Of a DNA stretch of 64,000 nt, positions 13,066 through 64,000 are shown piece by piece. The stretch's first letter is position 1. Each line of letters starts with the position of its first letter. The stretch is taken from contig DAIF01000001.1 in assembly GCA_002496015.1 (NCBI GenBank), positions 8,752 through 72,751 on the forward strand, given 5' to 3'. The notes below the pieces were generated by a model. It worked only from the letters and a program-made list of their open reading frames with translations. It did not search any database and was not told where the DNA came from. Source of the stretch: Candidatus Pacearchaeota archaeon UBA73 (GTDB lineage Archaea; Nanobdellota; Nanobdellia; Pacearchaeales; GW2011-AR1). The position numbers and the translations under genes are program-made.

Positions 13066-13105
13066 TTATAGAAAAATCTAAAATAAAACTCGCCCTACCA
13101 AATTA

Positions 13106-13607: not shown

Positions 13608-13646
13608 TATGTGCTATTTAAATTTTGCCCAGATGCCCGGATTCGT

Positions 13647-13697
13647 TCAAAATCAAAGACGATATCAAAAAGATAAAGGAACAAATTGTTAATTAAC
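13647..13697 (+). repeat. Direct repeat copy 2 (duplicated 3' end of the small-protein gene)
   Basis: ttcaaaatcaaagacgatatcaaaaagat identical to 13015..13043; continues with in-frame similarity to the stop codon; no ATG-initiated ORF. Confidence 0.7.
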
Positions 13698-13751
13698 TAT
13701 TTAGTATTACAAAACTACAAAGTTTAAAAACTCCGACTTCCCAAAAAAACT

Positions 13752-41971: not shown

Positions 41972-42472
41972 ATGGCAAAGATAGAAGCTTCGTTAATCCT
42001 CGAAATTCTCGGAAGACCGAAAGAGAATGTCTCTGCTGCTATGGAAACTTTGATAAATCGTTTGTCGTTGGAAAAGGGAGTTAAGGTGTTAAACAAGACT
42101 CTTCACGAACCTGTGCCGGTTGAGAAATCAGACCTATTCACTTCATTCGCTGAAGTCGATGTCGAGCTGGACTCCTTTATGACTTACGTAGCGGTCATCT
42201 TTGGGCATATGCCTTCCAACATTCAGATTACCTCTCCGGAAAAAATGACCCTTAACAACATGGAACTTAACGAGATTGGAAATGCTCTGGTTCAGAGATT
42301 GCACCATTACGATGCTGTGACTAAAAATGTCCTTGTCGAAAGAAACTTTTATGCAAAAAAGCTTCAGGAAATAGCTCCGCATCTTTTCATAAAACAAGGG
42401 CCTGCTCCTGCACAAGAGAAAACCCCTCCCAAAGATAAACCAAAAAAATCAAAGAAGTCTAAGAAGAATTAA
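41972..42472 (+). CDS. Hypothetical protein with Lys-rich C-terminal tail
   Basis: 166 aa, no motif recognised; ends in PKDKPKKSKKSKKN. Confidence 0.4.
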   Translation: MAKIEASLILEILGRPKENVSAAMETLINRLSLEKGVKVLNKTLHEPVPVEKSDLFTSFAEVDVELDSFMTYVAVIFGHMPSNIQITSPEKMTLNNMELNEIGNALVQRLHHYDAVTKNVLVERNFYAKKLQEIAPHLFIKQGPAPAQEKTPPKDKPKKSKKSKKN

Positions 42473-44340
42473 GGCAGGTTCTTTCTGGCAGAGTTTATCT
42501 TGCTTTGCAGGGGGCTTCCAGATGATTTTCCTGCTTTCTTATATTTCATAAAAACAAATACTACAACTATCAGGACAACTCCAGCTACCAAATATCCGAC
42601 CCACATCCAGGACCCTCCGCCGCCCCCGCCATCGGAACAGGTCCCAACGCAACAACTGCTCCTGTCAATCGTCGCGACCACATTTCCATCGCAGGTCTGT
42701 CCTGCTCCACACTCGATTCCCAGAAGTTCAGAACAATAATACGAGGGTCCGCTGGAACTGCTGTTCCGCGAATATTCAGTGATTGCTCCGGACTCCGTAT
42801 CAGTGAAATTAAATTCCAGCAACAAATATTCAAAGGAGTCTTCGGCATACGCGATAACAACCCCTTTGAATGGGTGCCCCCTCCACACATCATTTACAGT
42901 CACATTAAAACTCGCGCTTTCATTCACACTGATATTTATATCCTGATATGGGACTATCATAAATTTAGACGGATTGAAATCCAGCCTTAATCCTACGATT
43001 TCACTGTCTCCAGTATTTGTGATTCTAAAACGATATGTTGAAAAGCCCCGACTCAGAAAAACCGTGCTCCGAATCTCTGCAGGATCTAACGCAAATGAAG
43101 GCGGGCCCGGTAGCGGAATTAAAAAACACTCTGTGAGGTTGAATCTACACTCGTCGGACATACAACTAAGGTTTCCCCCGTCATATCCAAGGCTCGTGCA
43201 ATTTCCCATGCTTAAATTGTTTCCATCGCACTCTTCACTTCCGGTCACTATTCCATCTCCGCAAACCGCAACGACCTCCGCGCTCGCATAGCAACTATTG
43301 TTATACCAATATCCCTTGGCGTCAAGACAGGTTCCCGCAGTTAAACACAGTTCCGGATAGTTCTCTCCACATGTCGCAGAAGCGTTTTTATTGCACGTAT
43401 TGTTATACCAATATCCTCCGGCATCAATACAGGTTCCTTGGGTTAGACAAAGCTCAACGTGTTGAGAATCACAAACAGCTCCTTGTTCATATCTATTGCA
43501 CGTATTGTTATACCAATGCCCCCCCGCCCCTGTGCAATTCGCTTGAGTCAGACAAAGGCTCAAATGTTCTGAGTCGCATGAGCTTGGAGAGTCTGAGGGA
43601 AGTTCACAGAAGGAGGTGTCAAATGCCAAACAACTGCTCGCACACTGAAGCTGCCCGGAAATGAATCCTCCGGGAACCGAAGTGCAAGTCTTCCCATCAA
43701 GGTTTGCACCGTCACAAACTTCCCTGTCACTTATCAGTCCATCGCCGCAGATATACCTCTGCCCCACAATATACAATGGAATTTGATACCTTCCAAAATT
43801 CATTAAAATCTGCTGCGTCCCCAGAATTCCGCTTATCGAAAAATCAACATAATTTGTCCCCGGATATAATGTTATCGTTCGCGATTCCGGAAAGTCCACC
43901 TGAACATCCATTCCAGAGTAAGCCGTCGCCGCAATCTCAAAATTTTTATTCGCAATTACAAATCCGGGCGCAACAGAAAAATCAATCATCGGCCCCTGCA
44001 CAGTAAAATCTTTTCTATATTCGACAACCTCCGGCACGCCATCCACAAGAGCCACAACATTTCTGATAATCAGACTGTAATTTCCGGAGTTGGCAGGTGC
44101 AATTATCCAAATAAAATATCTATTCCCTAGTTTTCCTATATCAAACTGTGCAGCTACGTCTAAATGTCCGTCCCTCACTACCCTTACCTGCTCGGCTCTG
44201 ATTGGCGCAAGGATTCCGCCAGTGATTTCCCCGATCATTGTTTCACGCGGCGCGTACGAGTCTCTTATTGTCGAGGAGACCGCACTGACTTCAGGGATCA
44301 TCAACCAGATTATCGCCAGCAAAAAAATGAATCTCTTCAT
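42469..44340 (-). CDS. Cys-rich surface protein (CGDGxxxxxEECD repeat family) with C-terminal TM
   Basis: 623 aa. Signal MKRFIFLLAIIWLMIPEVSA. CGDGLISDREVCDGANLDGKTC and CGDGIVTGSEECDGNNLSMGNC. Three tandem C..Q..C.GAGG.WYNN.C modules. TM WMWVGYLVAGVVLIVVVFVF. Confidence 0.6.
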   Translation of the reverse strand: MKRFIFLLAIIWLMIPEVSAVSSTIRDSYAPRETMIGEITGGILAPIRAEQVRVVRDGHLDVAAQFDIGKLGNRYFIWIIAPANSGNYSLIIRNVVALVDGVPEVVEYRKDFTVQGPMIDFSVAPGFVIANKNFEIAATAYSGMDVQVDFPESRTITLYPGTNYVDFSISGILGTQQILMNFGRYQIPLYIVGQRYICGDGLISDREVCDGANLDGKTCTSVPGGFISGQLQCASSCLAFDTSFCELPSDSPSSCDSEHLSLCLTQANCTGAGGHWYNNTCNRYEQGAVCDSQHVELCLTQGTCIDAGGYWYNNTCNKNASATCGENYPELCLTAGTCLDAKGYWYNNSCYASAEVVAVCGDGIVTGSEECDGNNLSMGNCTSLGYDGGNLSCMSDECRFNLTECFLIPLPGPPSFALDPAEIRSTVFLSRGFSTYRFRITNTGDSEIVGLRLDFNPSKFMIVPYQDINISVNESASFNVTVNDVWRGHPFKGVVIAYAEDSFEYLLLEFNFTDTESGAITEYSRNSSSSGPSYYCSELLGIECGAGQTCDGNVVATIDRSSCCVGTCSDGGGGGGSWMWVGYLVAGVVLIVVVFVFMKYKKAGKSSGSPLQSKINSARKNLP

Positions 44341-50831: not shown

Positions 50832-51610
50832 AAGCCCAACTCTATTCTCAGACAGGTGAGAAAAAATCCCATGTAGAACTTCCAAAACTATTCTCAGTCA
50901 GAATAAGAGAAGACATAGTCAAAAAATATTTCGAAGTAGACAAATTTATTCAGCCATACTCTCCCAAACCTCGCGCAGGCCTCAGACAATCCGCAACAGG
51001 AACAATCTCTCATCAGCGACACGACTGGAAGGGACATTACGGCAGGGGCATCTCTCGCGCTCCAAGAAAAACAATGTGGCGGCGCGGAACACAATTCTTC
51101 TGGGTCGGCGCAAACGTTCCGGGAACACGAGGCGGTCGCCAAGCTCATCCGCCAAAAGGAATTGGTGTAGAAAAAAAAATAAACAAGAAAGAAATCGAAG
51201 TGGCGATGAATTCGGCTTTCGCAGCGACTGCTCACAAAGACTTAGTCGTTAGAAGATACTCAACCCTTGAAAAAATCGAACACGTGCCATTCGTCATAGA
51301 ATCTATCCCAACCAAAACAAAAGAACTCAAAAACCTGATAAAAAACATATTCGGAGAAAACTCAAAACTCGCTTTCCGTGTAAAAGAAGTTCGCGCAGGT
51401 AAAGGAAAGACGCGAGGAAGAAAATATAAATCAAATGCCGGCGTTTTAATAATTACAGGAAATAACGAAAATGCAAAATTCGCCGGTTTCGACATCAAGC
51501 CCATCAATGAAGTCTCAATCTCAGACCTTTACCCTCTCGGAAGATTGACCGTCTTCACCCAAAAAGCCTTAAATGATTTAAACAAAGAAAAAAAGGAGAA
51601 AGTTAAATGA
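50828..51610 (+). CDS. rpl4: 50S ribosomal protein L4 (uL4)
   Basis: Operon position and L4/L1e pattern. Confidence 0.85.
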   Translation: MKAQLYSQTGEKKSHVELPKLFSVRIREDIVKKYFEVDKFIQPYSPKPRAGLRQSATGTISHQRHDWKGHYGRGISRAPRKTMWRRGTQFFWVGANVPGTRGGRQAHPPKGIGVEKKINKKEIEVAMNSAFAATAHKDLVVRRYSTLEKIEHVPFVIESIPTKTKELKNLIKNIFGENSKLAFRVKEVRAGKGKTRGRKYKSNAGVLIITGNNENAKFAGFDIKPINEVSISDLYPLGRLTVFTQKALNDLNKEKKEKVK

Positions 51611-51849
51611 TACTCAAACCAATTACCTCTGAAAAAGCAGTCAAGTTGATAGACTTAGATAATACTTTGACTTTCCGAGTTGAGATGAAAGAATCAAAAG
51701 AAGATATAAAGAAAGAAGTCGAGAAAACTTTCAAAGTCAAAGTTGATAAAGTCAGAACATTGGCCAGAGACAATAAAAAAATTGCATTTGTAAAACTCAA
51801 AAAGGAGAATCCTGCGATTGACGTCGCAACTAAGTTGGGAATGATATAA
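51607..51849 (+). CDS. rpl23: 50S ribosomal protein L23 (uL23)
   Basis: 80 aa, MILKPITSEKAV... Confidence 0.85.
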   Translation: MILKPITSEKAVKLIDLDNTLTFRVEMKESKEDIKKEVEKTFKVKVDKVRTLARDNKKIAFVKLKKENPAIDVATKLGMI

Positions 51850-52550
51850 TGGGGAAGAGAATAATTCAACAGGCGCGGGGCAAGGGAAGTCTGACTTACA
51901 GAGTAAGAAAGCAGGCTTTCAGCAAGCGGATAGGGTATCCCTCACAGGATAAAAAAGGCGAAGCCGAAATCATCGCCATCGTGCATTCTGCAGCTCACTC
52001 CGCACCTCTTATGAAAGTCATGATTAATAATCAAACTTTCTACAATCCCGCTTTCAATGGCGCCTTCGTTGGACAGAAGATATCAATTGACGGCGAACCA
52101 AAAGAAGGCAACATCTTATCAATGGGAAAAATTTCTCCCGGAACCCAAATCTACAATATAGAAAGAAATCCCGGCGACGGCGGCAAGATGATCCGAACCG
52201 CTGGCTCCTTCGCGGTAGTATCTAAACAAATGGAAAATAAGTTAGTAGTAGTTTCATTCTCAAACAAAAAAATAGTAACTCTAAATCCTGCGTGTCGTGC
52301 AACAATCGGAAGAATCGCTGGCGACGGAAAAATACTCAAACCCTTTGTCAAGGCTGGGAAAAAACATTACAAAATGAAAGCAGTCAACCGGCTCTGGCCC
52401 AGAACTTCTGCGGTTAAAGTCAACGCTGTCGACCACCCATTCGGCTCTGGCAGAGGCAAGAGAATCAAGCAGAAGATAGCTCAACGCAATGCTCCCGCAG
52501 GTCAGAGAGTCGGACACATTAGGCCGCGCAGGACAGGTTACAGGGGATAA
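51849..52550 (+). CDS. rpl2: 50S ribosomal protein L2 (uL2)
   Basis: 233 aa; MGKRIIQQARGKGS and C-terminal basic region. Confidence 0.9.
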   Translation: MGKRIIQQARGKGSLTYRVRKQAFSKRIGYPSQDKKGEAEIIAIVHSAAHSAPLMKVMINNQTFYNPAFNGAFVGQKISIDGEPKEGNILSMGKISPGTQIYNIERNPGDGGKMIRTAGSFAVVSKQMENKLVVVSFSNKKIVTLNPACRATIGRIAGDGKILKPFVKAGKKHYKMKAVNRLWPRTSAVKVNAVDHPFGSGRGKRIKQKIAQRNAPAGQRVGHIRPRRTGYRG

Positions 52551-52551
52551 A

Positions 52552-52962
52552 ATGGCAAATGAACAAGAAGTCGAAGTAAGAAAGAAAGAACAAAGTTATA
52601 GGGGCAAGACTCTTGAAGAGCTCAAAACCCTCGACGTAAGAGAGATAGCAAAATTCCTTCCTTCAAGGTCCCGGCGCTCCGTCCTAAGAAACTTCGACAC
52701 CATCCAGAAATTCATAAAACGCTGTGAAAAGAAAACGGCAAAAAACAAAAAAATCAGGACTCATCAAAGAGACATCATAATAGTTCCGCAGTTAGTTGGT
52801 TATACTATTGGAATTCATAATGGTAAAGCATTTCATGAACTCTCGATTACCTCGGAAATGATAGGCCACAGGCTGGGTGAATTTGCCTTGCCAAGAGGAA
52901 GAGTAAATCACGGAGCGGCTGGCCTCGGAGCGACCAAGTCGTCTCGCGCTCAGAAGAAGTAA
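52552..52962 (+). CDS. rps19: 30S ribosomal protein S19 (uS19)
   Basis: Start refined to MANEQEV. Contains IGHRLGEFALPRG. Confidence 0.85.
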   Translation: MANEQEVEVRKKEQSYRGKTLEELKTLDVREIAKFLPSRSRRSVLRNFDTIQKFIKRCEKKTAKNKKIRTHQRDIIIVPQLVGYTIGIHNGKAFHELSITSEMIGHRLGEFALPRGRVNHGAAGLGATKSSRAQKK

Positions 52963-52963
52963 A

Positions 52964-53587
52964 ATGACAGAACAAAAAACAAAACCCCAAAAGACTGAGA
53001 AGAAAGAAAAAATTATAGCGAAGCCTCTTCCGGTTGACAAAGAAAAAACTAAAGAAATAGAGATGAAGATGGAACAAGAGAAAAAATCTGATGAAGTCCA
53101 AGCAAGTAGTCCAGTTGCAAAACCGGAAACGCAGCCAGAGAAGAAAGAATCAAAGAAAGTTGAAGTCCCAAAGAAAGACGAAGCGATCGCCAGAGGCACT
53201 TCATTGCCTATCTCTAAAAAACATTCAATGTATATCGGTAACTTCATAAAAGGAAAAAAGATCGAAGATGCAATTGCCGACTTAGAAAAAGTTGTTAAAC
53301 TCAAACAAGCTGTTCCTTTCAAAGGCGAAATTCCTCACAGGAAAGGGATGGAACGCGGACGCTATCCTGTGAAAGCTGCATCATATTTCATAAACACGCT
53401 AAAAGCGTTAAAAGGTAATGCTATTACAAATCAAATGGAGCTCGAAGACACCCGGATTTATCTTGTCTCCCCCTCTTGGGCTCCTCGCCAGCTCAGAAGG
53501 GGCGGAAGAAAAGCCAAAAGAACTCATCTCATAATCAAAGCAAGGGAATTTAAGAACAAAAAACAAGACAAGGAGAAAAAGAAATAA
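52964..53587 (+). CDS. rpl22: 50S ribosomal protein L22 (uL22) with long K/E-rich N-terminal extension
   Basis: Core ARGTSLPISKKHSMYIGNFIKGKKIEDAIADLEKV; ~70 aa charged N-terminal extension. Confidence 0.85.
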   Translation: MTEQKTKPQKTEKKEKIIAKPLPVDKEKTKEIEMKMEQEKKSDEVQASSPVAKPETQPEKKESKKVEVPKKDEAIARGTSLPISKKHSMYIGNFIKGKKIEDAIADLEKVVKLKQAVPFKGEIPHRKGMERGRYPVKAASYFINTLKALKGNAITNQMELEDTRIYLVSPSWAPRQLRRGGRKAKRTHLIIKAREFKNKKQDKEKKK

Positions 53588-54288
53588 TGGAAGAAAAAAA
53601 ATTCGTAAGCTTCAAAAAAGATGAACTCAGGGTCAAGGAATACATAAAGAATGTTCTCGGCAAGGGAAGAATTAGCGCAGTTGTGATAGAATACACTCCT
53701 GTCGGGGAGAAAATCAAAGTCTCAACTTCCCGCCCAGGTTTGGTTATCGGACGAAAAGGAGAGAAGATTGACGAACTGACAAAAGTCCTAAAAAGAAGAT
53801 TTAAACTTGACAATCCGCACATCGAAATTGTCGAAATCACTCAGCCCCTTCTTGACGCACAGTTAGTCGCCGATGAAATAGCAGTCGTGCTCGAAAGAAA
53901 AGGGTCTCTCAAATTCAAGGTGATCGCCTACAAGATGCTGCAACAGATTATCAGGTCCGGAGCTCTTGGCGTTGAAATTACTCTGGCAGGAAAACTGCCA
54001 AGCGACCGCGCTCGAACGTGGAGGTTTACTCACGGCTATCTCAAAAAGACCGGAGATCCTGCAAAGATTGTCGATCGCGCTCAATCCCAAGCAACAACTA
54101 TTGCAGGCGTCGTAGGAGTTTCAGTCGCAATCTTAAGACCTGATGCGGTCCTTAGCGATCAGATAAAATTGGATGAGAACACTAAGCAAAAGATTAAGAT
54201 ATCGGTGACTGAGCTTGGAGCACCTGTCGAAGAAACAAAGCCAAAGAAAAAATCTTCAAAGAAAAAATCCGAGGAGGTTAAGGAATAA
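53587..54288 (+). CDS. rps3: 30S ribosomal protein S3 (uS3)
   Basis: KH domain VIGRKGEKIDELT; K-rich C-terminus. Confidence 0.9.
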   Translation: MEEKKFVSFKKDELRVKEYIKNVLGKGRISAVVIEYTPVGEKIKVSTSRPGLVIGRKGEKIDELTKVLKRRFKLDNPHIEIVEITQPLLDAQLVADEIAVVLERKGSLKFKVIAYKMLQQIIRSGALGVEITLAGKLPSDRARTWRFTHGYLKKTGDPAKIVDRAQSQATTIAGVVGVSVAILRPDAVLSDQIKLDENTKQKIKISVTELGAPVEETKPKKKSSKKKSEEVKE

Positions 54289-54515
54289 TGGCTCTCCTAA
54301 AAAACTCTGCAGTCAAGAAGATGAGCGACAAGGAAATGGAAGAAAAACTAAATGATTTGAAGTTAGAGCTAGTCAGGGCTAACGTCACAGCAAATAAGAC
54401 TAATGCGAAAACCAAAGAACTTAAAAGGGCAATTTCAAGGATATTAACAGCAATGAAAGCTAAAAAGTCACAAGTCAAACTCAATTCCTCCCAGAAAAAG
54501 GAGTTGAGCAAATAA
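54288..54515 (+). CDS. rpl29: 50S ribosomal protein L29 (uL29)
   Basis: 75 aa; MALLKNSAVKKMSDKEMEEKLNDLKLELVRA. Confidence 0.85.
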   Translation: MALLKNSAVKKMSDKEMEEKLNDLKLELVRANVTANKTNAKTKELKRAISRILTAMKAKKSQVKLNSSQKKELSK

Positions 54516-54812
54516 ATGGATTCAAACGAATTCGGCTTACCAAGTGAAACCGATGTGTTTGAAGAAATCGCCAAAAGCGAACAGCAAATAAAAGTGACCA
54601 CCCAGACGAGGAGATACGGGAAAAAAATAACACTCATCGAGGGTTTTGACAAGCACGTGGACGTCAAGTCTGTCGCAAAAGCCCTCAAAGAAGGGCTTGC
54701 CTGCGGAGGGACTTCAAAAGATAACGTGATAGAACTGCAGGGAGATCACAAGAAAAAGGTCCGCCCGATTCTTGTGAAACTCGGATTTGCAGATGACTCC
54801 ATAAGCGATTAA
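54516..54812 (+). CDS. Translation initiation factor SUI1 (aIF1)
   Basis: VTTQTRRYGKKITLIEGF....LACGGT....ELQGDHKKKV. Confidence 0.8.
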   Translation: MDSNEFGLPSETDVFEEIAKSEQQIKVTTQTRRYGKKITLIEGFDKHVDVKSVAKALKEGLACGGTSKDNVIELQGDHKKKVRPILVKLGFADDSISD

Positions 54813-54830
54813 TCTCAAACCAAGGAGAAT

Positions 54831-55211
54831 ATGGCAGAAAAGAAAGAAAAGAAACAGTCAGCAAAGGCTGTGATAGAAGAGAATGGAAAGGAAAAGAATT
54901 TCAGAGATATAGTGAAAACTCTGGGTCTCTCCACAAGGGGCAGGGTCTTTCAGGGAAAAGTAATCAGAAAATTTCCTAAAAGGGTTACAATCGAATTCGA
55001 ACGCACAGTTAAACTTCATAAATTCGAAAGATTCATGAAAAAGCGAACGCGAATTCACGCTCGCCTTCCGGATCAATTCGCAGCCCAAATTAATCTCGGC
55101 GATTTAATCAGAGTTCAGGAAACACGCCCTATTTCAAAAACAATTCATTTTGTTGTCGTAGAAAAAATTCGTTCAGCCGAAAATAATCTCAAAAGTCTGG
55201 AGGGCGAATAA
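54831..55211 (+). CDS. rps17: 30S ribosomal protein S17 (uS17)
   Basis: GKVIRKFPKRVTIEFERTVKLHKFERFMKKRTRIHA. Confidence 0.85.
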   Translation: MAEKKEKKQSAKAVIEENGKEKNFRDIVKTLGLSTRGRVFQGKVIRKFPKRVTIEFERTVKLHKFERFMKKRTRIHARLPDQFAAQINLGDLIRVQETRPISKTIHFVVVEKIRSAENNLKSLEGE

Positions 55212-55639
55212 TGGCACAAAAATCATCAATCGTCTCAGGAAAAGCAATAAGCGCAAGGGCAACAAGGGCATTAAACATAGGGAGTATCGTTCTTGCCAGC
55301 GACAACTCTGGTGCTCAGATAGTCAGAATTACAGGAGTAATACGCGGAAAAGTAAGAAAACGAAGACAGCAGTATGCTAAACTCGGCGATTGGGTAAAAG
55401 TCTCTGTGAGGAAAGGCAAGCCGGATATGAAAGGCAAGGTTTTCGACGCAGTGGTAATCCGCCAGAAAAAGCCCTATCGCAGATTAACCGGCGAACGCGT
55501 CTGCTTTGAAGACAATGCTGTCGCGTTGATGAAAGACGACAAGGGAAATCCAAAGGGTACTCAAATTAAAGGCCCTGTTGCAAGGGAGGTTCACGAGCGT
55601 TGGCCGTCAGTCGCCAAAATCGCTCAGTTTGTATTATGA
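55211..55639 (+). CDS. rpl14: 50S ribosomal protein L14 (uL14)
   Basis: GSIVLASDNSGAQIVRITGVIRGKVRKRR. Confidence 0.9.
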   Translation: MAQKSSIVSGKAISARATRALNIGSIVLASDNSGAQIVRITGVIRGKVRKRRQQYAKLGDWVKVSVRKGKPDMKGKVFDAVVIRQKKPYRRLTGERVCFEDNAVALMKDDKGNPKGTQIKGPVAREVHERWPSVAKIAQFVL

Positions 55640-56061
55640 AATCCACATTCTCCACATCATGGCTATCTTCGAAAAAACCGCGCAAACAAAGAAAGTTTAC
55701 AGCAAACGCTCCGTTTCATATTAAGCATAAATTTTTAAGTGCAACTCTTTCCAAAGAACTAAGAAAGAAATATGGCAAGAGAAGTCTGCCTGTAAGAAAA
55801 GGCGACGAAGTGCTTGTCATGCGCGGCTCGTTCAGGAAAAAGAAAGTCAAAATCTCTTTAACAGACTTAAAAAGAACTCGCGTCGCATTAGAAAACATTC
55901 AAAGAACAAAGAAAGATGGCACTAAAGTTAATGTTTGGTTCCATCCAAGTTCATTGCAAATTCAAACCCTGAATTTAGACGACAAAAAACGCATTGCCGT
56001 CCTCGAAAGAAAAATAAAGCAAGGAGAAAAAAATGCATCAGACAAGAGCGCAGGTAAGTAA
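55636..56061 (+). CDS. rpl24: 50S ribosomal protein L24 (uL24)
   Basis: KOW motif VRKGDEVLVMRGSFRKKKVKI. Start refined to MKSTFS (ATGA overlap with rpl14). Confidence 0.85.
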   Translation: MKSTFSTSWLSSKKPRKQRKFTANAPFHIKHKFLSATLSKELRKKYGKRSLPVRKGDEVLVMRGSFRKKKVKISLTDLKRTRVALENIQRTKKDGTKVNVWFHPSSLQIQTLNLDDKKRIAVLERKIKQGEKNASDKSAGK

Positions 56062-56659
56062 GAAAATCCCTCTAGCAAGAAAGGGTTCAAAATATGTAGC
56101 AAGGCCGCTGATGGATTTGGAGAATTCCATCCCGGTCGTAATCGCTGTTAGAGATATGCTGAAACTCGCCCGCACAGCCAAAGAAGTAAGGAAAATGATT
56201 ATCCAAAAGTCCTTGAAAATCAACGGGAAAGAAGTTAAGGATTATCGGGATTCTATCCGGCTTTTCAATTTGTTCGAAGCAGATAAGAGCTACATATTGA
56301 ACTTGAATCTCCAAGGCAGATTCATGCTTGAAGAAACAAAGCAAACGGAAAGGCCTTGCAAAGTGATAGGAAAGAGAATCCTCGCAGGCAAGAAGCTCCA
56401 GCTCAATCTCCACGATGGAACAAACGTCTTGACAACTGACCAGAAAATAAAAACTCAGGACACAGTTTATCTTGATATTGAAAATAAAATCAAGGGACAT
56501 ATCGAATTAGGTCATGGAAAAGAATGTTTGATAATAAAAGGAAAACTTCTCGGGCACAAAGGCAAAATAGATAAGGTAGAAGGCAACAAGGTTCATGTCA
56601 AAATCAAAGAACTTGACCTAGAGACTAGTCTGAATAAGGAAGGAGTTATTGCAATATGA
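56033..56659 (+). CDS. rps4e: 30S ribosomal protein S4e (eS4)
   Basis: KKIPLARKGSKYVARP...; 208 aa. Confidence 0.85.
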   Translation: MHQTRAQVSKKIPLARKGSKYVARPLMDLENSIPVVIAVRDMLKLARTAKEVRKMIIQKSLKINGKEVKDYRDSIRLFNLFEADKSYILNLNLQGRFMLEETKQTERPCKVIGKRILAGKKLQLNLHDGTNVLTTDQKIKTQDTVYLDIENKIKGHIELGHGKECLIIKGKLLGHKGKIDKVEGNKVHVKIKELDLETSLNKEGVIAI

Positions 56660-57174
56660 AACCCCAAAATCTCATGCGAAATATCAGGTTGGAGAAAGTA
56701 ACTCTTAGCTGCGGCGCCACGGGCTCGGATTTAGAAAAGTCACAAAAACTTTTAGAAATGCTGACAGCTCGGAAAGCCCAGATTAATCATTCCGGTCCAA
56801 GGACAAGAATTCCTAATTTTAACGTCAAGCCGGATATGCCTCTCGGCACTTCAGTCACTCTCCGCAGAAAAGATGCTGCAGAAATGCTTAGAAAATTGCT
56901 GGGCGCAATCGACAACAGGCTCCGCAAAAAGCAAATTTCTCGAAACGGATTTTCTTTCGGAATCCACGAGTATATAGAGATTCCCGGAGTGGAATACAAG
57001 CGGGAAATAGGGATTCGCGGATTAAACGTGACTGCGACATTCATCCGTGCAGGCACGCGTGTCAAGAGGAAAAAGATGAAAGCTGGCAGAATTCCTCAAA
57101 GACAATATGTGACTCCGCAGGAGATTATAGACTATCTAAAAGAACATTTCAAGACAGAGGTAAGCGCAAGATGA
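56656..57174 (+). CDS. rpl5: 50S ribosomal protein L5 (uL5)
   Basis: NLMRNIRLEKVTLSCGATG. Confidence 0.9.
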   Translation: MKPQNLMRNIRLEKVTLSCGATGSDLEKSQKLLEMLTARKAQINHSGPRTRIPNFNVKPDMPLGTSVTLRRKDAAEMLRKLLGAIDNRLRKKQISRNGFSFGIHEYIEIPGVEYKREIGIRGLNVTATFIRAGTRVKRKKMKAGRIPQRQYVTPQEIIDYLKEHFKTEVSAR

Positions 57175-57401
57175 CAGCAAGTGATTGGAAAAAAATAACA
57201 AAACAATTAAGAAGCAAACCCGTAGTAATGCAAAAATTCCTAAGACATTGTAAGCCAAAAGACCGAAAGCAGGGGATCGCCTCTCAAAAATGCGAACGCT
57301 GCGGCAGATTTGGCGCTCACCTAAACCAATATAAACTACATCTTTGTAGGCATTGCTTCAGGGAAATTGCCGAAGAGATTGGTTTCAAAAAATACAGCTA
57401 A
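57171..57401 (+). CDS. rps14: 30S ribosomal protein S14 type Z (uS14)
   Basis: Zinc motif CERCGR....CRHCFRE. Confidence 0.85.
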   Translation: MTASDWKKITKQLRSKPVVMQKFLRHCKPKDRKQGIASQKCERCGRFGAHLNQYKLHLCRHCFREIAEEIGFKKYS

Positions 57402-57402
57402 C

Positions 57403-57783
57403 ATGTCACAAGATACAGTTTCAGATACATTGAATCAGCTAATGAATGCACTTAGAGCGGGAAAGTCAGAAGTAGAAGTAAAAAAATACTCAAAGTTTCT
57501 CCTTAGCGTTCTGGCTCTCGCTAAACTGAAGGGTTACGTGGAATCTTATCAGGCAGATCCCGCAGCTAAGACTCTTAAAATCAAGATCGGGAGATTGAAC
57601 GGCTGCAACTCAATTAAACCTCGCCTCGTCTTAAAAGCGAACGAGATTGAGCGTTATGTCAAGAGATATCTCCCGGCAAAGAATATTGGAATTATTATCA
57701 TTTCAACGCCGCAAGGTCTAATGACGCATCAAACTTCACTTGAAAAAAATTTGGGAGGGAGCTTGATAGCTTATTTCTACTAA
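57403..57783 (+). CDS. rps8: 30S ribosomal protein S8 (uS8)
   Basis: Start refined to MSQDTVSDTLNQLMNA; ends GGSLIAYFY. Confidence 0.85.
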   Translation: MSQDTVSDTLNQLMNALRAGKSEVEVKKYSKFLLSVLALAKLKGYVESYQADPAAKTLKIKIGRLNGCNSIKPRLVLKANEIERYVKRYLPAKNIGIIIISTPQGLMTHQTSLEKNLGGSLIAYFY

Positions 57784-58325
57784 TGAAAAGACGCATTTTG
57801 GAAACAGTCGCTATTCCAGCAGGCATCTCATGCGAAATTTCTGACGGAGTTATACGCTGTACAAAGGATTCCAAAACCCTCCAAAGAAAAATCTCGGTTC
57901 CCTCAACCGAAGTCAATATCAAAGATAGCGAAGTGGTTCTTGAATGTAAGAAAGGAAACAAGAATAATTACAAGGGAATAATGTCAACGATTGCGCACCT
58001 AAAAAATCTTTTCAACGGTCTTGAAGAAACTTACGTCTATAAGCTGGAATCTTGCAACGTTCATTTCCCGATGACGATAAAAGTCGAGCCGAATCGAGTT
58101 GTGATAAACAATTTTCTGGGAGAAAAAGTTCCTCGGGAAGCGAAGATTCTTCCCGGCGTCGAAGTCAAAATTGAAGGTCCTAAAATAACAGTCACTTCGC
58201 ATGATCGCGAGGCAGCAGGTCAGACCGCGGCGAATCTTGAGCGGGCGACAAAACTAAGGGGGCGGGATAGAAGAATATTTCAGGATGGGATTTACATCGT
58301 TGAGAAACCCGGGAGGGACATCTAA
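57783..58325 (+). CDS. rpl6: 50S ribosomal protein L6 (uL6)
   Basis: Operon position and length 180 aa. Confidence 0.8.
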   Translation: MKRRILETVAIPAGISCEISDGVIRCTKDSKTLQRKISVPSTEVNIKDSEVVLECKKGNKNNYKGIMSTIAHLKNLFNGLEETYVYKLESCNVHFPMTIKVEPNRVVINNFLGEKVPREAKILPGVEVKIEGPKITVTSHDREAAGQTAANLERATKLRGRDRRIFQDGIYIVEKPGRDI

Positions 58326-58690
58326 TGCCAAAGAAAAAATTTGTTCGTCAAGATGCCAACAGGTATTCCAAAATCGGCAAGAATAGAAAAAAACTTCAGA
58401 AATGGAGAAGGCCAAAAGGAAGGGACAGCAAGATGCGTCTGAAGAGAAAGAGCTATCCTGCTACTGTATCTATTGGATACAGCACCTCAAGAAAGGAATA
58501 CGGAAAGATCAACGGAAAAACGCCCGTCTTAGTTTACAATATAAAAGACCTGGAAAAGCTGGGCAAAGAAAACGTCGCTTTGTTGGCGAAAGTCGGCGCA
58601 AAAAAGAAACTTGAGATGATTAAATTCGCAGAGGAAAAAAAGATTGCGATTATCAACGTGCGCGGAGGAAAAAATGAAGCTGGAAAATAA
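58325..58690 (+). CDS. rpl32e: 50S ribosomal protein L32e (eL32)
   Basis: KKLQKWRRPKGRDSKMRLKRKSYP. Confidence 0.85.
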   Translation: MPKKKFVRQDANRYSKIGKNRKKLQKWRRPKGRDSKMRLKRKSYPATVSIGYSTSRKEYGKINGKTPVLVYNIKDLEKLGKENVALLAKVGAKKKLEMIKFAEEKKIAIINVRGGKNEAGK

Positions 58691-59144
58691 AAAAGCTCTT
58701 GTAGCTAGAACGTTGAACGTGGGGAAGAATCGCATTGTGTTTAACACGCAAAGACTTTCGGAACTAAAGGAGGCAATTACTAAACAGGACATTCGAGACC
58801 TTCAGAAGTCTGGCGCTATTCACATCAAGGCAGAGTCAGGCAGAAAAACAAAGAAGAAACGAAAGACTCGAAGAAGATACGGGAGCATAAAGAAGGTTAT
58901 TAAAGGCGGAAAGACAGACTACATCATTCTTACAAGAAAGCTCAGGTCTTATCTGGCTCACCTGAAAAAAACAAATCAGATTCCTCGGGAAGATTATCTG
59001 ACTCTCCGCAAGGAGATTCGAGCCAGTGCGTTCAGAAGTCTGGCTCACATGAAAGAGAGGATTTCTCAGGCAGAAAAGTTCAAGAGCAAGGGGGTAAAGA
59101 ATGCCAAAAACACAAAGGCGAAGAAGAAAAGAAAGAAAAACTGA
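58673..59144 (+). CDS. rpl19e: 50S ribosomal protein L19e (eL19)
   Basis: Start refined to MKLENKKAL; KKKRKTRRRYGSIKK. Confidence 0.85.
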
Positions 59145-59577
59145 TTACAAGTCAAGGTTTAATCTGCTGAAATCAGAGAAACCTCGATTGGTAATCAGAA
59201 AGACAAATCGTTACATAATCGTGCAGATAGTGGAATCGACAATCGCTCAGGACAGAGTCATTGCAGAAGTTACTTCAAAAGATTTGCTTGCTAAGGGCTG
59301 GCCCAAAGAAAAATCTGGTTCACTAAAATCCCTTCCTGCAGCATATCTCACCGGATACCTTCTCGTAAAAAATCTCAAGGCTAAGGTGGGCGAGGTCGTT
59401 CTTGACATGGGTTTGCAGCGCAATGTGCACGGGTCGAGAATTTATGCAGCGTTCATGGGAGCGATTGATGCTGGGCTCAAATCCCCACACAATCCGGAAT
59501 CTCTTCCGGACATGAAACGAATTCAATCTAACGAAAAGCTTAAAACAATATTCGAAAAAGTAAAAGGAGCTTTATAA
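59101..59577 (+). CDS. rpl18: 50S ribosomal protein L18 (uL18)
   Basis: MPKTQRRRRKERKTDYKSRF... Confidence 0.85.
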   Translation: MPKTQRRRRKERKTDYKSRFNLLKSEKPRLVIRKTNRYIIVQIVESTIAQDRVIAEVTSKDLLAKGWPKEKSGSLKSLPAAYLTGYLLVKNLKAKVGEVVLDMGLQRNVHGSRIYAAFMGAIDAGLKSPHNPESLPDMKRIQSNEKLKTIFEKVKGAL

Positions 59578-59578
59578 G

Positions 59579-60361
59579 ATGGCCGAAAAAGAAACACGCA
59601 ATGAACCAAAGGACATGATTGAAGCCGTTCCGGAAGAACTGGAAAAGCTGGAAATAGAAGTAGTCGAAGAAAAGCTGGAAGAAATAGACAAGAAAGAGAA
59701 GTCGCAGGAAGTTGTCTCTTCTTGGGCTCCAAAGACTCGACTCGGTAAGTTGGTGAAAGAAGGAAAAGAAAAAGATATTGACAAGATTTTGAAATCTGGA
59801 AAGAAGATACTCGAAGCAGAGATTGTCGATTCTCTTCTGCCTTTAGAATCCGATTTGATTCTCATTGGACAGGCGAAGGGAAAGTTTGGCGGAGGAAAAA
59901 GAAGAGCTTGGAGACAAACTCAAAAGAAAACCATGGAAGGAAACGATCTCTCGTTTTCTGCGATGGCAGTTATCGGCGACAAGAGGGGCCATGTCGGCGT
60001 CGGCTTCGGAAAGGCTTCAGAGACTCTGCCCGCGAGAGAAAAGGCTCTCCGAAATGCGAAATTGAACGTGATGAAAGTAACGCTCGGATTTGAATCTCCG
60101 GAAGAAGAAAAAGACAAGACGAATCCACACACCGTGCCATTCAAATCTGAAGGAAAATGTGGTAGCGTGCGCATCACGCTCTGGCCTGCTCCAAGGGGGA
60201 CTGGGTTGGTCGCAGGTGCAGAAGTCAAGAAGATTCTTCGACTGGCTGGCGTTAAAGACGCATACACCCGCGCGTCGGGTCACACAAAAACTACATTCAA
60301 CGTAGCAAGAGCATGCATAGATGCTCTCGAAAAAACCGCAAAAATGAGGTTGGAACAATGA
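59579..60361 (+). CDS. rps5: 30S ribosomal protein S5 (uS5) with acidic N-terminal extension
   Basis: Core dsRBD and S5 C-terminal domain (GHVGVGFGKASE). Confidence 0.85.
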   Translation: MAEKETRNEPKDMIEAVPEELEKLEIEVVEEKLEEIDKKEKSQEVVSSWAPKTRLGKLVKEGKEKDIDKILKSGKKILEAEIVDSLLPLESDLILIGQAKGKFGGGKRRAWRQTQKKTMEGNDLSFSAMAVIGDKRGHVGVGFGKASETLPAREKALRNAKLNVMKVTLGFESPEEEKDKTNPHTVPFKSEGKCGSVRITLWPAPRGTGLVAGAEVKKILRLAGVKDAYTRASGHTKTTFNVARACIDALEKTAKMRLEQ

Positions 60362-60777
60362 TAGTTGTCATTAGAATTGCAGGTCAAGTCCACTTGACAG
60401 AAGAGATGGAGGAGACGTTCAACAGGATTAGACTGAGAAGAAAATATTCTGCGACGCTGCTGCCAGAAACTAAAGAAACCGCAAAGTTGCTTTTGCGTAT
60501 TCGAAACTTTATTTCATACGGTCAGATAGATACCGCCACTCTTGCAAACTTACTAGCTGCTCGAGCTCAGCCGCTAAAGGCCGGCGCGAAGATTGATCCA
60601 AAAAAGATTATGACTGAGATTGAGAAAAAATCTCTTCAGGAACTCGGGCTAAAGCCGTTCTTCAGACTTCACCCCCCAAGGGGAGGGATTGACTCAAAGA
60701 AACACGCTGGAGGAAAAGGCAAGGGCGTGCTCGGAGAGAATAAAAATATAAATGCTCTAATCGAGAGGATGTTATAA
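60359..60777 (+). CDS. rpl30: 50S ribosomal protein L30 (uL30)
   Basis: Start refined to MIVVIRIAGQV. Confidence 0.85.
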
Positions 60778-60962
60778 TGGTTTCAAAAGGATTTGCTTGG
60801 GAATGTGAATGTGGAAACATCGAATACGGATCATATCCTCCGGAAGAATGCTCGCAATGCGCCGCAGTTGACAGCTTCATAAAAGTTCCGGAAGACGAAA
60901 TTGCTGAGAGGGAAGAGGAAAACGTCTTGGCAAAAAGACCTTTGGAGGAAGAAGATGATTAA
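60777..60962 (+). CDS. Small Zn-ribbon protein (61 aa) encoded between rpl30 and rpl15
   Basis: WECECGNIEYG...CSQC followed by an acidic tail. Starts at the rpl30 stop; overlaps rpl15 start by 8 nt. Confidence 0.4.
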   Translation: MVSKGFAWECECGNIEYGSYPPEECSQCAAVDSFIKVPEDEIAEREEENVLAKRPLEEEDD

Positions 60963-61350
60963 GAAAAGAACGAAAAGGTCGCGGTTTAGGGGAACCCACA
61001 CTCACGGTAGAGGATTCAAGAAGAAAGCTCGTGGTTCTGGTCATCGTGGCGGAGTCGGAAGGGCGGGCAGCGGCAAAAAAGCCGATCAGAAAAAAGATCT
61101 GATTAATTTTCCATTTGGAAAAGACAAAGCCCTAAGAAGAAAGCCCAAGATAAAGCTAAATACCATAAATCTCTCGCAGATATCGGAAAAGTTCGCGGGG
61201 CAAAAAGAAGTAAAACTTCAGGGTTATAAAATTCTAAGCAACGGGGACATAAAGGAGAAAATGACAATTTACGCAGACGCTGCATCAGAATCCGCAATAG
61301 GTAAAATTAAAAAAGCCGGCGGAGATATTGTTTTAACTAACAAGAAGTAA
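60955..61350 (+). CDS. rpl15: 50S ribosomal protein L15 (uL15)
   Basis: Start refined to MIKKRTKRSRFRGTHTHGRGFKKKARGSGHRGG. Confidence 0.85.
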   Translation: MIKKRTKRSRFRGTHTHGRGFKKKARGSGHRGGVGRAGSGKKADQKKDLINFPFGKDKALRRKPKIKLNTINLSQISEKFAGQKEVKLQGYKILSNGDIKEKMTIYADAASESAIGKIKKAGGDIVLTNKK

Positions 61351-61392
61351 CGAAACCAAAAAATTTTTATAGTCTTACTTTCTCAAAAAATT

Positions 61393-62169
61393 ATGAAACA
61401 AATCAATCAAAGAATAGCAGAAACTGGAATTTTTGTATTTAGTTATGACCCCCAAACTAGAAAGTTCACATATTCGCGTCCTTTCACGACAAAAGAAGCA
61501 AAAGACTTAGCTGAACAAACCAATGCAACAATTAATTCTCAATATAAAGGTGTTAAGGGTCTAAGAAAAGGTCTTGCAGCTAAAAATGGCAAATTAGTTA
61601 ATATGAGTACGCTTAAAGGAATCGTCGCAAATAGGGTTCTTATGCAATCTACAAATGCCCAACAATGGTTGCCGACAATTCAAGAAGGAATCACCTTACA
61701 AAGAGCGGGAATGTTTCCTTCAGGAATTTTGATTGATATAGGTATTGCTTTATACAATGAACAAGCCCCCAATAAAGAAATTGCCAAATCTTTAGCTAAT
61801 GAAGGGAGATATGTTTTGCCCGTTTTAGCTTCATTCAAATCTCTTGATTTATCCCTCGGAGGAAAAAGATACGGCGTCACTCCTCGATTAGTTTCGGCGG
61901 ATGGCTTAACCTCTGGAAAAGATGCAACAAAATTAATGCAGGCCAATTCTTTTTATCAAGGAGAAGGTACAGGAGTTCGCGGGGTGTGCCACAGCAACGG
62001 CGACTTCTGGTGTGCCGATTGGAACGACGACTTGGGCTACTTCTACGAGGACTGTCGGGTGGGTCGTTTTTCTGCCAAAGGCAGCGCGCAAAAATTGGAG
62101 GAAGAGGCTTTAGGCGCGTTTGCTCCAATCAGAAAAAGCCTAGATTCGGTTCTTGCTCTGGCACAATAA
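61393..62169 (+). CDS. DGR target (variable) protein; VR lies in its C-terminal region
   Basis: 258 aa. The C-terminal segment VCHSNGDFWCADWNDDLGYFYEDCRVGRF is the protein product of the VR (template-like repeat lies downstream). The CRVGRF ending resembles C-type-lectin/FGE-like DGR variable domains. Confidence 0.65.
   Translation: MKQINQRIAETGIFVFSYDPQTRKFTYSRPFTTKEAKDLAEQTNATINSQYKGVKGLRKGLAAKNGKLVNMSTLKGIVANRVLMQSTNAQQWLPTIQEGITLQRAGMFPSGILIDIGIALYNEQAPNKEIAKSLANEGRYVLPVLASFKSLDLSLGGKRYGVTPRLVSADGLTSGKDATKLMQANSFYQGEGTGVRGVCHSNGDFWCADWNDDLGYFYEDCRVGRFSAKGSAQKLEEEALGAFAPIRKSLDSVLALAQ
61981..62064 (+). repeat. DGR variable repeat (VR)
   Basis: ~80-nt match to TR at 62351..62434; 17 of 20 mismatches are at positions where TR has A. 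Confidence 0.7.
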
Positions 62170-62350
62170 AACATTTAAAGAATATTTTCTTAATTTTACT
62201 CCTAGCCAAATGGCTGGGCCACACGCTGGTTAATAGCGCTCGTAATTGAGTCATAAAATACAATCATTGCATCTAGTAAACAGTGAATCGATGGATGAGT
62301 TGAAATTTACAATGATGGTGAAACTTTGATTAATCAGCTACACAGTTCTC

Positions 62351-62434
62351 AGGGTGTACTGCAACAACGACGGCAACTGGAATGCCAATTGGAACGACAA
62401 CTTGGACAACTTCAACGAGAACTGTCGAATGGCC
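62351..62434 (+). repeat. DGR template repeat (TR), AAC-rich, immediately upstream of RT
   Basis: gtg tac tgc aac aac gac ggc aac tgg aat gcc aat tgg aac gac aac ttg gac aac ttc aac gag aac tgt cga. Non-coding (preceded by an in-frame TGA, no ATG) and AAC-codon-rich as in DGR TRs. Confidence 0.7.
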
Positions 62435-62451
62435 TGGCTTGCTAGGAAAAA

Positions 62452-63351
62452 ATGAAAACTTATAGTAACTCGCACAAAAAAATAATCTCTTTTGAAAATC
62501 TTATCCTAGCTTGGAAAAAAGCTAGAAAAGGTAAAACTAAAAAAGATTATGTTATAAAGTTTGAAGATGAATTATTCTGTAATCTAATGGCCCTTCATTA
62601 TGAATTAAAATTCCATGCTTATTCGCCACGTCCGCTCGTAACTTTCATCTTGCGCGACCCAAAAACTCGGGTAATTTCAAAATCCGACTTTAGAGATAGA
62701 ATTGTTCATCACGCTATTTGCAATATCATTGAGCCAATATTTGACAAAACTTTCATCCATGATTCGTGTTCAAACAGAAAGAACAAGGGAAATTTATTTG
62801 CCCTCATGCGTTTACAAAAATTTATCAGAAAGATATCAAAAAACGGATTAATTGCAAAAAATAAATTTCAGGACAATAATTTTGTAGTCGGATACTGTCT
62901 AAAAGCAGACATCAAACACTATTTTCAAGAAGTTGATCACAATATTCGCTACGTAGATGATTTTGTTATCTTACATCGCTCTAAAGAACAGTTGGTCTTG
63001 TGGAAAGAGCAGATTAATAACTTTCTGAAAGAAAATTTAAAGATTGAACTACACTCTCAAAAATCAAGGATCATTCCGCTTTCAAAAGGGATAGACTTTG
63101 TAGGATTTCGAAATTTTTATCACTATAAACTTCCGAGAAAAAGAAATATAAGAAAAATGCAGAGAAGAATTCAAGCATTTCTCGAAGAAGAAATTTCATA
63201 CCAAGAATTAATGGAAAGTTATCAAGGTTGGCAGGCGTATGTAAAATGGTCGAGCTCTCTTAACTTAAGAAGAAATTTGTTAAAAGAAATTCAGAAAGTA
63301 AAACAATCTCTAGTCGAGAAGAGAAAAACATCCTTACAGCATTCTCGCTAA
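62452..63351 (+). CDS. DGR-type reverse transcriptase, apparently lacking the motif 4/B region
   Basis: N-terminus matches DGR RTs (ENLILAWKKARKGK; ISKSDFRDRIVHHAICNIIEPIFDKTFIHDSCSNRKNKG). Motif A LKADIKHYFQEVDH is followed after only 3 residues by motif C YVDDFVIL. Thumb-like GIDFVGFRNF. Confidence 0.75.
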   Translation: MKTYSNSHKKIISFENLILAWKKARKGKTKKDYVIKFEDELFCNLMALHYELKFHAYSPRPLVTFILRDPKTRVISKSDFRDRIVHHAICNIIEPIFDKTFIHDSCSNRKNKGNLFALMRLQKFIRKISKNGLIAKNKFQDNNFVVGYCLKADIKHYFQEVDHNIRYVDDFVILHRSKEQLVLWKEQINNFLKENLKIELHSQKSRIIPLSKGIDFVGFRNFYHYKLPRKRNIRKMQRRIQAFLEEEISYQELMESYQGWQAYVKWSSSLNLRRNLLKEIQKVKQSLVEKRKTSLQHSR

Positions 63352-63396
63352 TTTTCCCAATATCTTTAAAAAGTCTAATTTCAGAATAATATAAAA

Positions 63397-64000
63397 TGGC
63401 ATCAGCCCTAAAAAACATCCTCTATAATCTCCCTGAGGTTAAACGGCCGACAGAAAAGAAAGTTAGTTTCAACGTCAAGTTGAAATGGACTATCATCATC
63501 CTAGTTGCATTTTTTATCCTGGCTAACGTTGACTTATATGGCCTGTCCGCCAACGCCTTAGGCAACTTGGAATTTCTTCAGACAATTCTTGCTTCTCAGT
63601 TTGGTACGATAATCAGCTTGGGTATCGGACCAATAGTCATGTCATCTATCATCCTACAGCTTCTCGTCGGCTCAGGTATACTTAAAATCAATACGAAAAC
63701 CGAAGAAGGCAAGAAATATTTTCAGGGTCTTCAAAAAGTTGGAGTTCTTTTCTTTATAGTGTTTGAAGCGATAGTTTACGTAGCGATGGGCGGATTACAG
63801 GCAGATCCAAACCTTGCATGGGGCTCGCAGATACTCATCTTTCAGCTAATCCTCGGCGGACTCGCCATAATGTTCATGGACGAAGTGGTTCAAAAGTGGG
63901 GCTTTGGTTCTGGCGTTTCTCTATTTATCGTAGCCGGAGTCGCTTGGAGCTTATTCAATGGGCTGTTCCAGTTCATAGACGCTTCAGGTGCGAACTGTCT
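63397..64000 (+). CDS. secY: Preprotein translocase SecY, N-terminal part (runs off the window)
   Basis: Open frame from ATG 63397 to the window end: MASALKNILYNLPEVKRPTEKKVSFNVKLKWTIIILVAFFILANVDLYG...LGIGPIVMSSIILQLL. Absent from the ORF track because there is no in-window stop. Confidence 0.75.

Follow-up and report, generated by a model that had tools for sequence, protein, structure and literature searches.

How did a diversity-generating retroelement (DGR) come to lie between the ribosomal protein gene rpl15 and the translocon gene secY, and what drives its transcription and that of secY? The question is raised by a 64,000-nt stretch (the window, to which all coordinates refer) of contig DAIF01000001.1 from Candidatus Pacearchaeota archaeon UBA73, a tiny DPANN archaeon, in which a cassette of DGR target gene, template repeat (TR), and reverse transcriptase (RT) gene sits at the end of a ribosomal protein operon. 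An earlier note on this DNA had described the cassette as an insertion into an almost invariable gene order. Our comparison of sequences favors, at a probability of roughly three in four, a lineage-specific insertion of a self-contained 2,064-nt DGR module between the 3' end of rpl15 and the start of secY.

An empty site in a close relative delimits the insert

On the plus strand, the order is rpl15, target gene, TR, RT gene, and secY (Table 1); open reading frames (ORFs), Pfam matches, and an 89-nt direct repeat all agree with the arrangement given in the earlier note, except that secY begins one base before the position given there (63397), its ATG occupying 63396-63398. From the rpl15 stop to the secY ATG there are 2,045 nt, with spacers of 42 nt between rpl15 and the target gene, 282 nt of non-coding DNA between the target and RT genes, and 44 nt between the RT gene and secY.

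A search with the L15 protein led to L193, a 55-kb contig in ENA with a 94%-identical L15 (L numbers are our labels for related genomes and contigs). In L193, rpl15 and secY are 2 nt apart and the cassette is absent. By blastn, window positions 50943-61328 correspond to positions 1-10374 of L193, with 94.78% identity over 10,388 nt, and positions 63393-64000, the first 608 nt from secY onward, correspond to positions 10393-11000, with 90.13% identity. Because homology stops at 61328 and resumes at 63393, the limits of the insert can be set between these two bases. The 2,064 nt stand in place of 18 ancestral nt (AATACTGAAAAAGGCGTA), which encode the L15 C terminus (...ILKKA) plus the greater part of its stop codon. 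The last seven codons of rpl15 and its stop (61329-61350) are encoded by insert DNA, and the window L15 ends in ...IVLTNKK*, the nearest L15 proteins in the database all ending in ...KKA*.

Identity to L193 is normal beside both junctions (92.7-95.3% at the left one, about 94% at the right one), which indicates a clean indel rather than a long recombination tract; for the same reason, transfer of a tract from a donor that already held the cassette is unsupported. Homology at the joint is confined to the 4 nt ATAT, with which both the left flank and the insert end. A 24-nt pair at 61323-61346 and 63342-63365, considered as terminal inverted repeats, was dropped because it does not lie at the ends defined by L193.

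The absence of the cassette extends to other relatives. No target or RT homolog was found at the rpl15-secY junction in any of the 70 related Pacearchaeota and Nanoarchaeota species genomes that hold both genes, and the genomes of the three closest species in GTDB have no cassette and show gaps of 14-16 nt between the aligned ends of rpl15 and secY. Together with the empty site in L193, these data uphold the proposed insertion of a DGR cassette at this junction.

Promoters are predicted at the target gene and at secY

A position weight matrix (PWM) was built from 17 promoters of the window, none of them from the region under study, and both strands were scanned (about 128,000 positions). Genes of the window with a spacer upstream follow a strict grammar, an A-rich stretch, a TTTAAATA-like 8-mer, 21-22 nt, and the ATG, as is typical of leaderless archaeal mRNAs; for 11 of the 17 promoters, the cleanest ones, the TATA 8-mer is 21-22 nt before the ATG. 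The earlier note had proposed a look for promoter signals in 61351-61392 and 63352-63396, and both intervals contain a predicted promoter, ranked fifth and seventh in the window (Table 1). The first is of the type with a TFB recognition element (BRE) and TATA box; its TATA 8-mer occupies 61364-61371, 21 nt before the ATG of the target gene; the site is conserved in homologs, and a leaderless transcript is predicted. The second has its TATA 8-mer at 63365-63372, within the insert, and resembles the secY promoter of other Pacearchaeota, most of which carry a separate secY promoter, aatCTTTAAAAACt, whose start lies about 29 nt before the ATG. That the window site is the retained native secY promoter was considered and rejected, since L193 places it within inserted DNA.

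A third, moderate candidate would start a transcript at the 5' end of the RNA leader described below. The PWM scan found no promoter-like site before the ATG of the RT gene, as expected if TR and RT gene are co-transcribed. With strong promoters predicted for both the target gene and secY, transcription need not rely on read-through from the operon, and of the two possibilities that the earlier note had raised, read-through or promoters of its own, the sequence favors the latter. Scans for sigma-70 promoters and intrinsic terminators gave counts not above those in shuffled sequence, such models being uninformative for an archaeon.

Another promoter-like site lies within the rpl15 codons for GKIKKAG and now faces the cassette. 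Where rpl15 abuts secY (L008-L010, L016, L026, L071, L085, and L193), the K(I/V)KKAG codons of L15 form a good TATA/BRE match of 10.7-15.9 bits that would start the secY mRNA 7-15 nt before its ATG; for L193 and L008-L010, the values are 10.7-15.2 bits and 13-15 nt. We infer that the site at 61299-61316 may represent an ancestral-type secY promoter, a sequence that is also constrained by coding.

The target gene belongs to a family with a conserved left end

The target family comprises 47 proteins among 5.8 billion. In other Nanoarchaeota, the target module occupies a variety of chromosomal sites, and nearly every target homolog has the same left end before it, a block consisting of TTAACT-N-AAG(T/A)AGTAAC, an A-rich stretch, and then TTTAAATA, which in the window spans 61333-61372. 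The motif that opens this block offers a TAA in each reading frame; rpl15 now stops at the third of these. None of about 30 other loci has a member of the family beside L15, secY, S5, or L30. A viral origin was rejected, since IMG/VR contains no target homolog and the identity of viral RTs does not exceed 42%. In L002, a target homolog (P0133) lies in an 8-kb unannotated block (L002:2432-10742) between rpsG (S7) and an intein-containing EF-2 gene, another junction of translation genes that is normally conserved; tandem target paralogs were sought in this 8-kb insert, and none was found.

These data point to a sequence of events. The insertion replaced 18 nt, including the rpl15 stop, and the left-end motif supplied a new one. 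The module would bring three predicted promoters, of which two are strong, a leaderless one at the target gene and an outward-facing one at its 3' end; the third, serving the leader, TR, and RT gene, is weaker. Insertion would have cut secY off from whatever drove it before, and the event probably survived through the restored rpl15 stop and the promoter provided for the essential secY. The most likely route would be illegitimate recombination of horizontally acquired DNA at the 4-nt microhomology, followed by selection, and the RT gene would have suffered its in-frame deletion (see below) after the insertion.

The rpl15-secY junction often holds unrelated genes

The earlier note held that rpl15 and secY are almost invariably adjacent, a claim that does not survive in this clade. 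In the synteny comparison that it had proposed, we took inter-gene distances for consecutive operon genes in 61-70 related genomes. The two genes are adjacent in 52 of 70 relatives, as they are in L193 and L008-L010, and the window departs from the L30-L15-SecY order; the other 18 relatives hold 446-4,314 nt of unrelated genes at this place. Gaps of >400 nt are thus present at L15-secY in 18/70, compared with L6-L32e (0/61), L32e-L19e (2/61), L19e-L18 (0/61), L18-S5 (0/62), S5-L30 (0/65), and L30-L15 (5/65). Because 18 of 70 genomes hold other genes here, against 0-5 of 61-65 at the six neighboring junctions, the site is better described as permissive than as invariant, and the unusual position of the cassette can be understood from the tolerance of the clade's junction to insertions.

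The inserts of relatives are mutually unrelated, lie on either strand, and vary in size. They encode an IS200-like transposase, a PIN toxin-antitoxin, a nucleotidyltransferase/HEPN pair, Fic, VIT1 transporters, and an ABC transporter; a cyclodipeptide synthase, a nucleoside deoxyribosyltransferase, a glycosyltransferase, and unknowns; and a methyltransferase with PEP-utilizing enzymes and a TrmB regulator. To judge from this content, the junction looks like a permissive site that gathers accessory genes rather than a targeted one. Insertion hotspots between conserved core genes are a general concept of bacterial comparative genomics. The rpl15-secY junction is like them in its conserved core flanks and variable, unrelated content, including toxin-antitoxin pairs and a transposase, and unlike the usual ones in that it lies at the end of a ribosomal protein cluster, in a very small archaeal genome, with no integrase or tRNA gene nearby.

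Repeat, hairpin, and leader have the features of a DGR

The variable repeat (VR) lies within the coding sequence of the target gene, whose product has no Pfam match and a C-type-lectin-like fold; folds of the C-type-lectin or Ig kind display the variable residues in DGR targets. VR and TR, the two copies of the 89-nt repeat, show 20 mismatches. Of these, 16 coincide with an adenine of TR, which has 29 A in its 89 nt (hypergeometric P = 8.8e-7), and the 12 that lie in the 3' 59 nt do so without exception (P = 2.6e-7). The repeat also has an end resembling the initiation of mutagenic homing (IMH) sequence. The VR end TGTCGGGTGGG is near-invariant in homologs, and TGTCGGGTGG occurs in 18 of 24 copies with an invariant GGTGG core; where VR ends in TGTCGGGTGGG, the TR copies all have GAATGGC. 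This is a fixed difference of the IMH/IMH* kind, and the last two "A-to-G" mismatches consequently do not reflect mutagenesis. The inverted repeat that accompanies these elements is present as a short hairpin past VR (CTGCC-NNN-GGCAG), which is kept in nearly all family members, with a compensatory change in L002 and wobble pairs in L105.

The non-coding TR adjoins the RT gene with no predicted promoter between them, and the DNA before TR matches an Rfam family, RT-16 (RF03019), over its full length (cmscan, 75.6 bits against a gathering threshold of 50; E = 3.4e-11; model positions 1-158 of 158). The 174-nt spacer before TR is 70-80% identical among cassettes over the alignable parts. RNAalifold predicted 60 base pairs from 10 cassettes, 16 of them with compensatory changes, and a long-range helix between 62212-62221 and 62430-62439, just past TR, encloses leader and TR. 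In the description of RT-16 by Weinberg et al. 2017 (PMC5737381), the motif is given no specific role; the match here is like that RNA in being full length and directly upstream of an RT gene, and it differs in abutting a DGR template repeat and in having the extra helix to sequence past TR. Because RT-16 adjoins TR and pairs with sequence after it, the comparison suggests that RT-16 is the leader of the DGR RNA, which would tie an orphan Rfam motif to DGR template RNA.

The reverse transcriptase has lost motif 4

Alignment by blastn with intact cassettes places an in-frame deletion of about 250 nt in the RT gene at 62943|62944. The protein lacks about 70-90 residues between ...QEVDHN and IRYVDDF..., namely the linker between motifs 3 and 4 and motif 4 itself, GMPLGNLTSQFFANVYLNELD. 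Motifs 1-3 and 5-7 align to homologs of the DGR type. In nine aligned homologs of 360-410 amino acids (aa), motif 4 (GMPLGNLTSQ...) is invariant. DGR RTs carry motifs 1-7 (PMC5758913). The target gene, TR, and leader are accordingly accompanied by an incomplete enzyme. An RT without motif 4 should not polymerize, and no second RT was found in the 64-kb window. Because motif 4 is lost, the DGR is probably frozen or non-autonomous unless an RT is supplied in trans. The earlier note's hypervariable-protein system is therefore recognizable in its DGR features, although self-driven variation is probably no longer part of it.

Between the target and RT genes and after the RT gene, the cassette has no ORF for an accessory protein (avd, HRDC, MSL, or CH1). 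Avd, found in 74% of DGRs, is not universal (PMC5758913); an Avd-like gene (PF05635) lies near the target homolog in L004 and L005.

Within the same target family, the RT is broken in five of the seven cassettes that still hold one. Broken RT genes occur in L094, L095, L101, and L108, a 37-aa RT remnant in L004, L005, and L097, and target genes without RT in L001, L002, L006, L103, L105, and L109, so that loss of the RT seems to be the usual fate in this family. RTs of this lineage also bear simple repeats in the linker just before motif 4, the region deleted in the window RT. L192 has G12 (L192:2771-2782) and an intact 347-aa RT, and L094 has G11 (L094:2753-2763) and a frameshift; over 4,176 nt (99.95% identity), this one G and a single mismatch are all that separates the two. 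Likewise, (AG)11 in L108 (L108:7701-7722) is out of frame and (AG)10 in L096 (L096:7663-7682) is in frame. L046 also bears a repeat (L046:2612-2625), and many homologs read GGGG(E/R) or RERE at the linker. These tracts could allow slipped-strand on/off switching of the DGR RT or could reflect homopolymer assembly error; a literature search on tract switching in DGR RTs turned up nothing related.

Alternative explanations

We considered whether an active DGR exploits the ribosomal operon, being transcribed mainly by read-through while its target diversifies now. Such use of the operon would suit the single strand on which all genes lie and the presence of only a T5 run (61364-61368) between rpl15 and the target gene, and ongoing diversification would suit the strictly adenine-specific mismatches in the 3' 59 nt of VR and the intact leader, TR, IMH-like end, and hairpin. 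We regard it as unlikely, given that the RT has lost a motif invariant in its homologs and generally known to be needed for polymerization, that the window offers no other RT, and that a conserved promoter, spaced exactly as is usual in this genome, is predicted for the target gene itself and also for homologs at loci without an upstream operon. Site-specific integration, with a recombinase and an att-like sequence at the rpl15 3' end and the TTAACT...AGTAAC motif as the recombination site, could explain why 18 of 70 relatives have insertions exactly at this junction, one including an IS200-like transposase, and why the left end of the target module is so sharply conserved. It is quite unlikely even so: the junction inserts are unrelated to one another, on both strands, and unequal in size, the window insert has neither an integrase nor repeats at its ends, target homologs occupy many sites and none of them rpl15-secY, and the position of the motif, directly before the BRE/TATA, is one where binding of an archaeal regulator would be expected.

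An assembly chimera, in which a DGR contig of another organism was joined into the operon, might be suspected from the metagenome-assembled source and from a GC content of 0.36 over 61351-63395 (0.318 in the RT gene), below the 0.426 of the operon. This is very improbable, since both flanks match L193 to the base and two precise false joins 2 kb apart would be needed; moreover, rpl15 runs in frame into the insert up to its stop, the promoter is correctly spaced from secY, and NCBI and Logan are both given as sources for the exact proteins, which include the deleted RT and L15 with its new tail. An old and fixed presence of the three genes in the operon of this lineage has next to no probability, as the cassette is absent from L193 (94.8% identical), L008-L010, and all other relatives.

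Some points nevertheless weigh against a recent, lineage-specific insertion followed by decay. The insert shows no integrase, transposase, terminal inverted repeat, or target-site duplication. All promoters here are predicted, by a PWM whose 17 training sites come from this same window; the nearest genome with an empty site is still about 5% diverged, which makes "recent" a relative term; and the deletion in the RT gene rests on one assembly, with the search for another RT covering 64 kb of a genome in which an intact copy may lie elsewhere. In addition, 4 of the 20 VR/TR differences are off adenines, all in the 5' 30 nt of the repeat. Some working DGRs also show non-adenine differences, so these four are not in themselves proof of decay, and the 5' limit of homing is imprecise (PMC5758913). 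Since the non-adenine differences are confined to the 5' 30 nt, the latest round of homing may have replaced no more of VR than its 3' 59 nt.

Relation to known DGRs

The DGRs of DPANN archaea and candidate phyla radiation (CPR) bacteria form the "CPR set" of Wu et al. 2018 (PMC5758913), which cites Paul et al. 2015 and 2017. The window cassette is like them in the order target-TR-RT, in a VR at the C-terminal end of a small protein with a C-type-lectin fold, in an AAC-rich TR with A-to-N differences, and in a chromosomal rather than viral location; RT homologs named in public records come from metagenome-assembled genomes of Nanoarchaeota or unclassified archaea. It is unlike them in that its RT lacks motif 4, it has no avd-type gene, and it sits in an spc-type ribosomal gene cluster, and our literature search found no paper pairing a diversity-generating retroelement with a ribosomal protein operon. 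With the DGR of Bordetella phage BPP-1 it shares adenine-specific VR/TR differences, a fixed 3' difference like IMH/IMH*, a hairpin just past VR, and the imprecise 5' limit of homing (as described in PMC5758913), whereas it is cellular and archaeal, has BRE/TATA promoters and no avd, and forms a hairpin of only 5 bp.

The cassette is a recently inserted, decaying member of a known DPANN DGR family in an unusual place and not a new kind of system. Its value lies in a base-precise view of how a very small archaeal genome takes up a 2-kb foreign module and keeps both rpl15 and secY, the insert supplying a stop codon on one side and a predicted promoter on the other, and in showing that the "universal" adjacency of L15 and SecY is a soft spot in this clade. 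It also adds to the impression that DPANN DGRs are gained and decayed quickly. The locus leaves the definition of a DGR unchanged, and the side observations are possibly worth more than the location itself. As a broader and doubtful proposal, the rpl15|secY junction might be a Pacearchaeota-wide capture site, where the survival of an insert would depend on its providing both a stop codon for rpl15 and a promoter for secY; the target family would be a mobile module running "promoter-to-promoter" and conserved at its 5' end, its RTs would carry length-varying tracts and often be broken, and DPANN DGRs would be transient, possibly phase-variable, rather than stable.

Table 1. Features at the rpl15-secY junction of the window
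Feature	Position	Strand	Description
rpl15 (uL15)	60955..61350	+	131 aa; Pfam PF00828 Ribosomal_L27A, E 3.5e-12
Promoter-like site in rpl15	61299..61316	+	Codons GKIKKAG; 10.7 bits, rank 34; now faces the cassette
Inserted segment	61329..63392	+	2,064 nt; blastn against L193
Left-end motif	61333..61351	+	TTAACT-N-AAGAAGTAAC; common to about 20 target homologs at unrelated sites
Predicted target promoter (BRE/TATA)	61356..61373	+	14.2 bits, rank 5; predicted start 61393, the ATG
Target gene (variable protein)	61393..62169	+	258 aa; divergent C-type-lectin/FGE-like fold
VR	61974..62062	+	Target codons 194-224; last 10 nt, 62053-62062 (TGTCGGGTGG), IMH-like
Hairpin	62072..62084	+	CTGCC-AAA-GGCAG; 5 bp; 10 nt past VR
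Candidate TR-RT promoter	62164..62181	+	7.6 bits, 99.87th percentile (moderate); start 62201, the RT-16 5' end
RT-16, putative leader of TR RNA	62201..62346	+	Rfam RF03019
TR	62344..62432	+	29 A; 8 AAC and 2 AAT codons when read in the VR frame; RT ATG 19 nt past its end
RT gene, DGR type	62452..63351	+	299 aa; Pfam RVT_1 on residues 164-220 only (C-terminal quarter of RVT_1)
Predicted secY promoter	63357..63374	+	13.5 bits, rank 7; start 63394, 2 nt before the ATG
secY, 5' part	63396..64000 (leaves window)	+	Pfam Plug_translocon 2e-08, SecY 2.4e-26

Other features of the window

Upstream of rpl15, the operon is tight, with S17-L14-L24-S4e-L5-S8-L6-L32e-L19e-L18-S5-L30 all on the plus strand and most genes overlapping or abutting. 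The window SecY is 87-88% identical in amino acids to that of L008-L010. Between L30 and L15 lies an ORF for a 61-aa zinc-ribbon protein (60777-60962) with a CxC...CxxC pattern and an acidic tail, which overlaps the start of L15 by 8 nt; it has no Pfam match and is present at the same position in 26 of 80 related loci and in L193. Identity to L193, 94-98% in the rest of the operon, falls to 79.7-87.7% over 56800-57400, around the L5 and S14 genes.

Farther away, at 13693-14537, an orphan protein of 261 aa with a C terminus rich in G, Y, D, and F (...GWGNVGYRLSVGGDNFYGFDGFDGYGGCAFGVF...) is preceded by a TTAACT...AGTATTAC motif and a promoter, an arrangement resembling the upstream region of the DGR target. 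The gene (13752-14537) has no matching repeat in the window, and its product has no detectable homology to the target family. Upstream of it, a 55-nt direct repeat (13015-13069 and 13646-13700; 85% identity) flanks a ParE/YafQ-like toxin gene (13106-13372). Finally, three tandem copies of about 100 nt, 67-71% identical over 85 nt, lie at 43287-43578 within a 623-aa ORF (42469-44340) on the minus strand.

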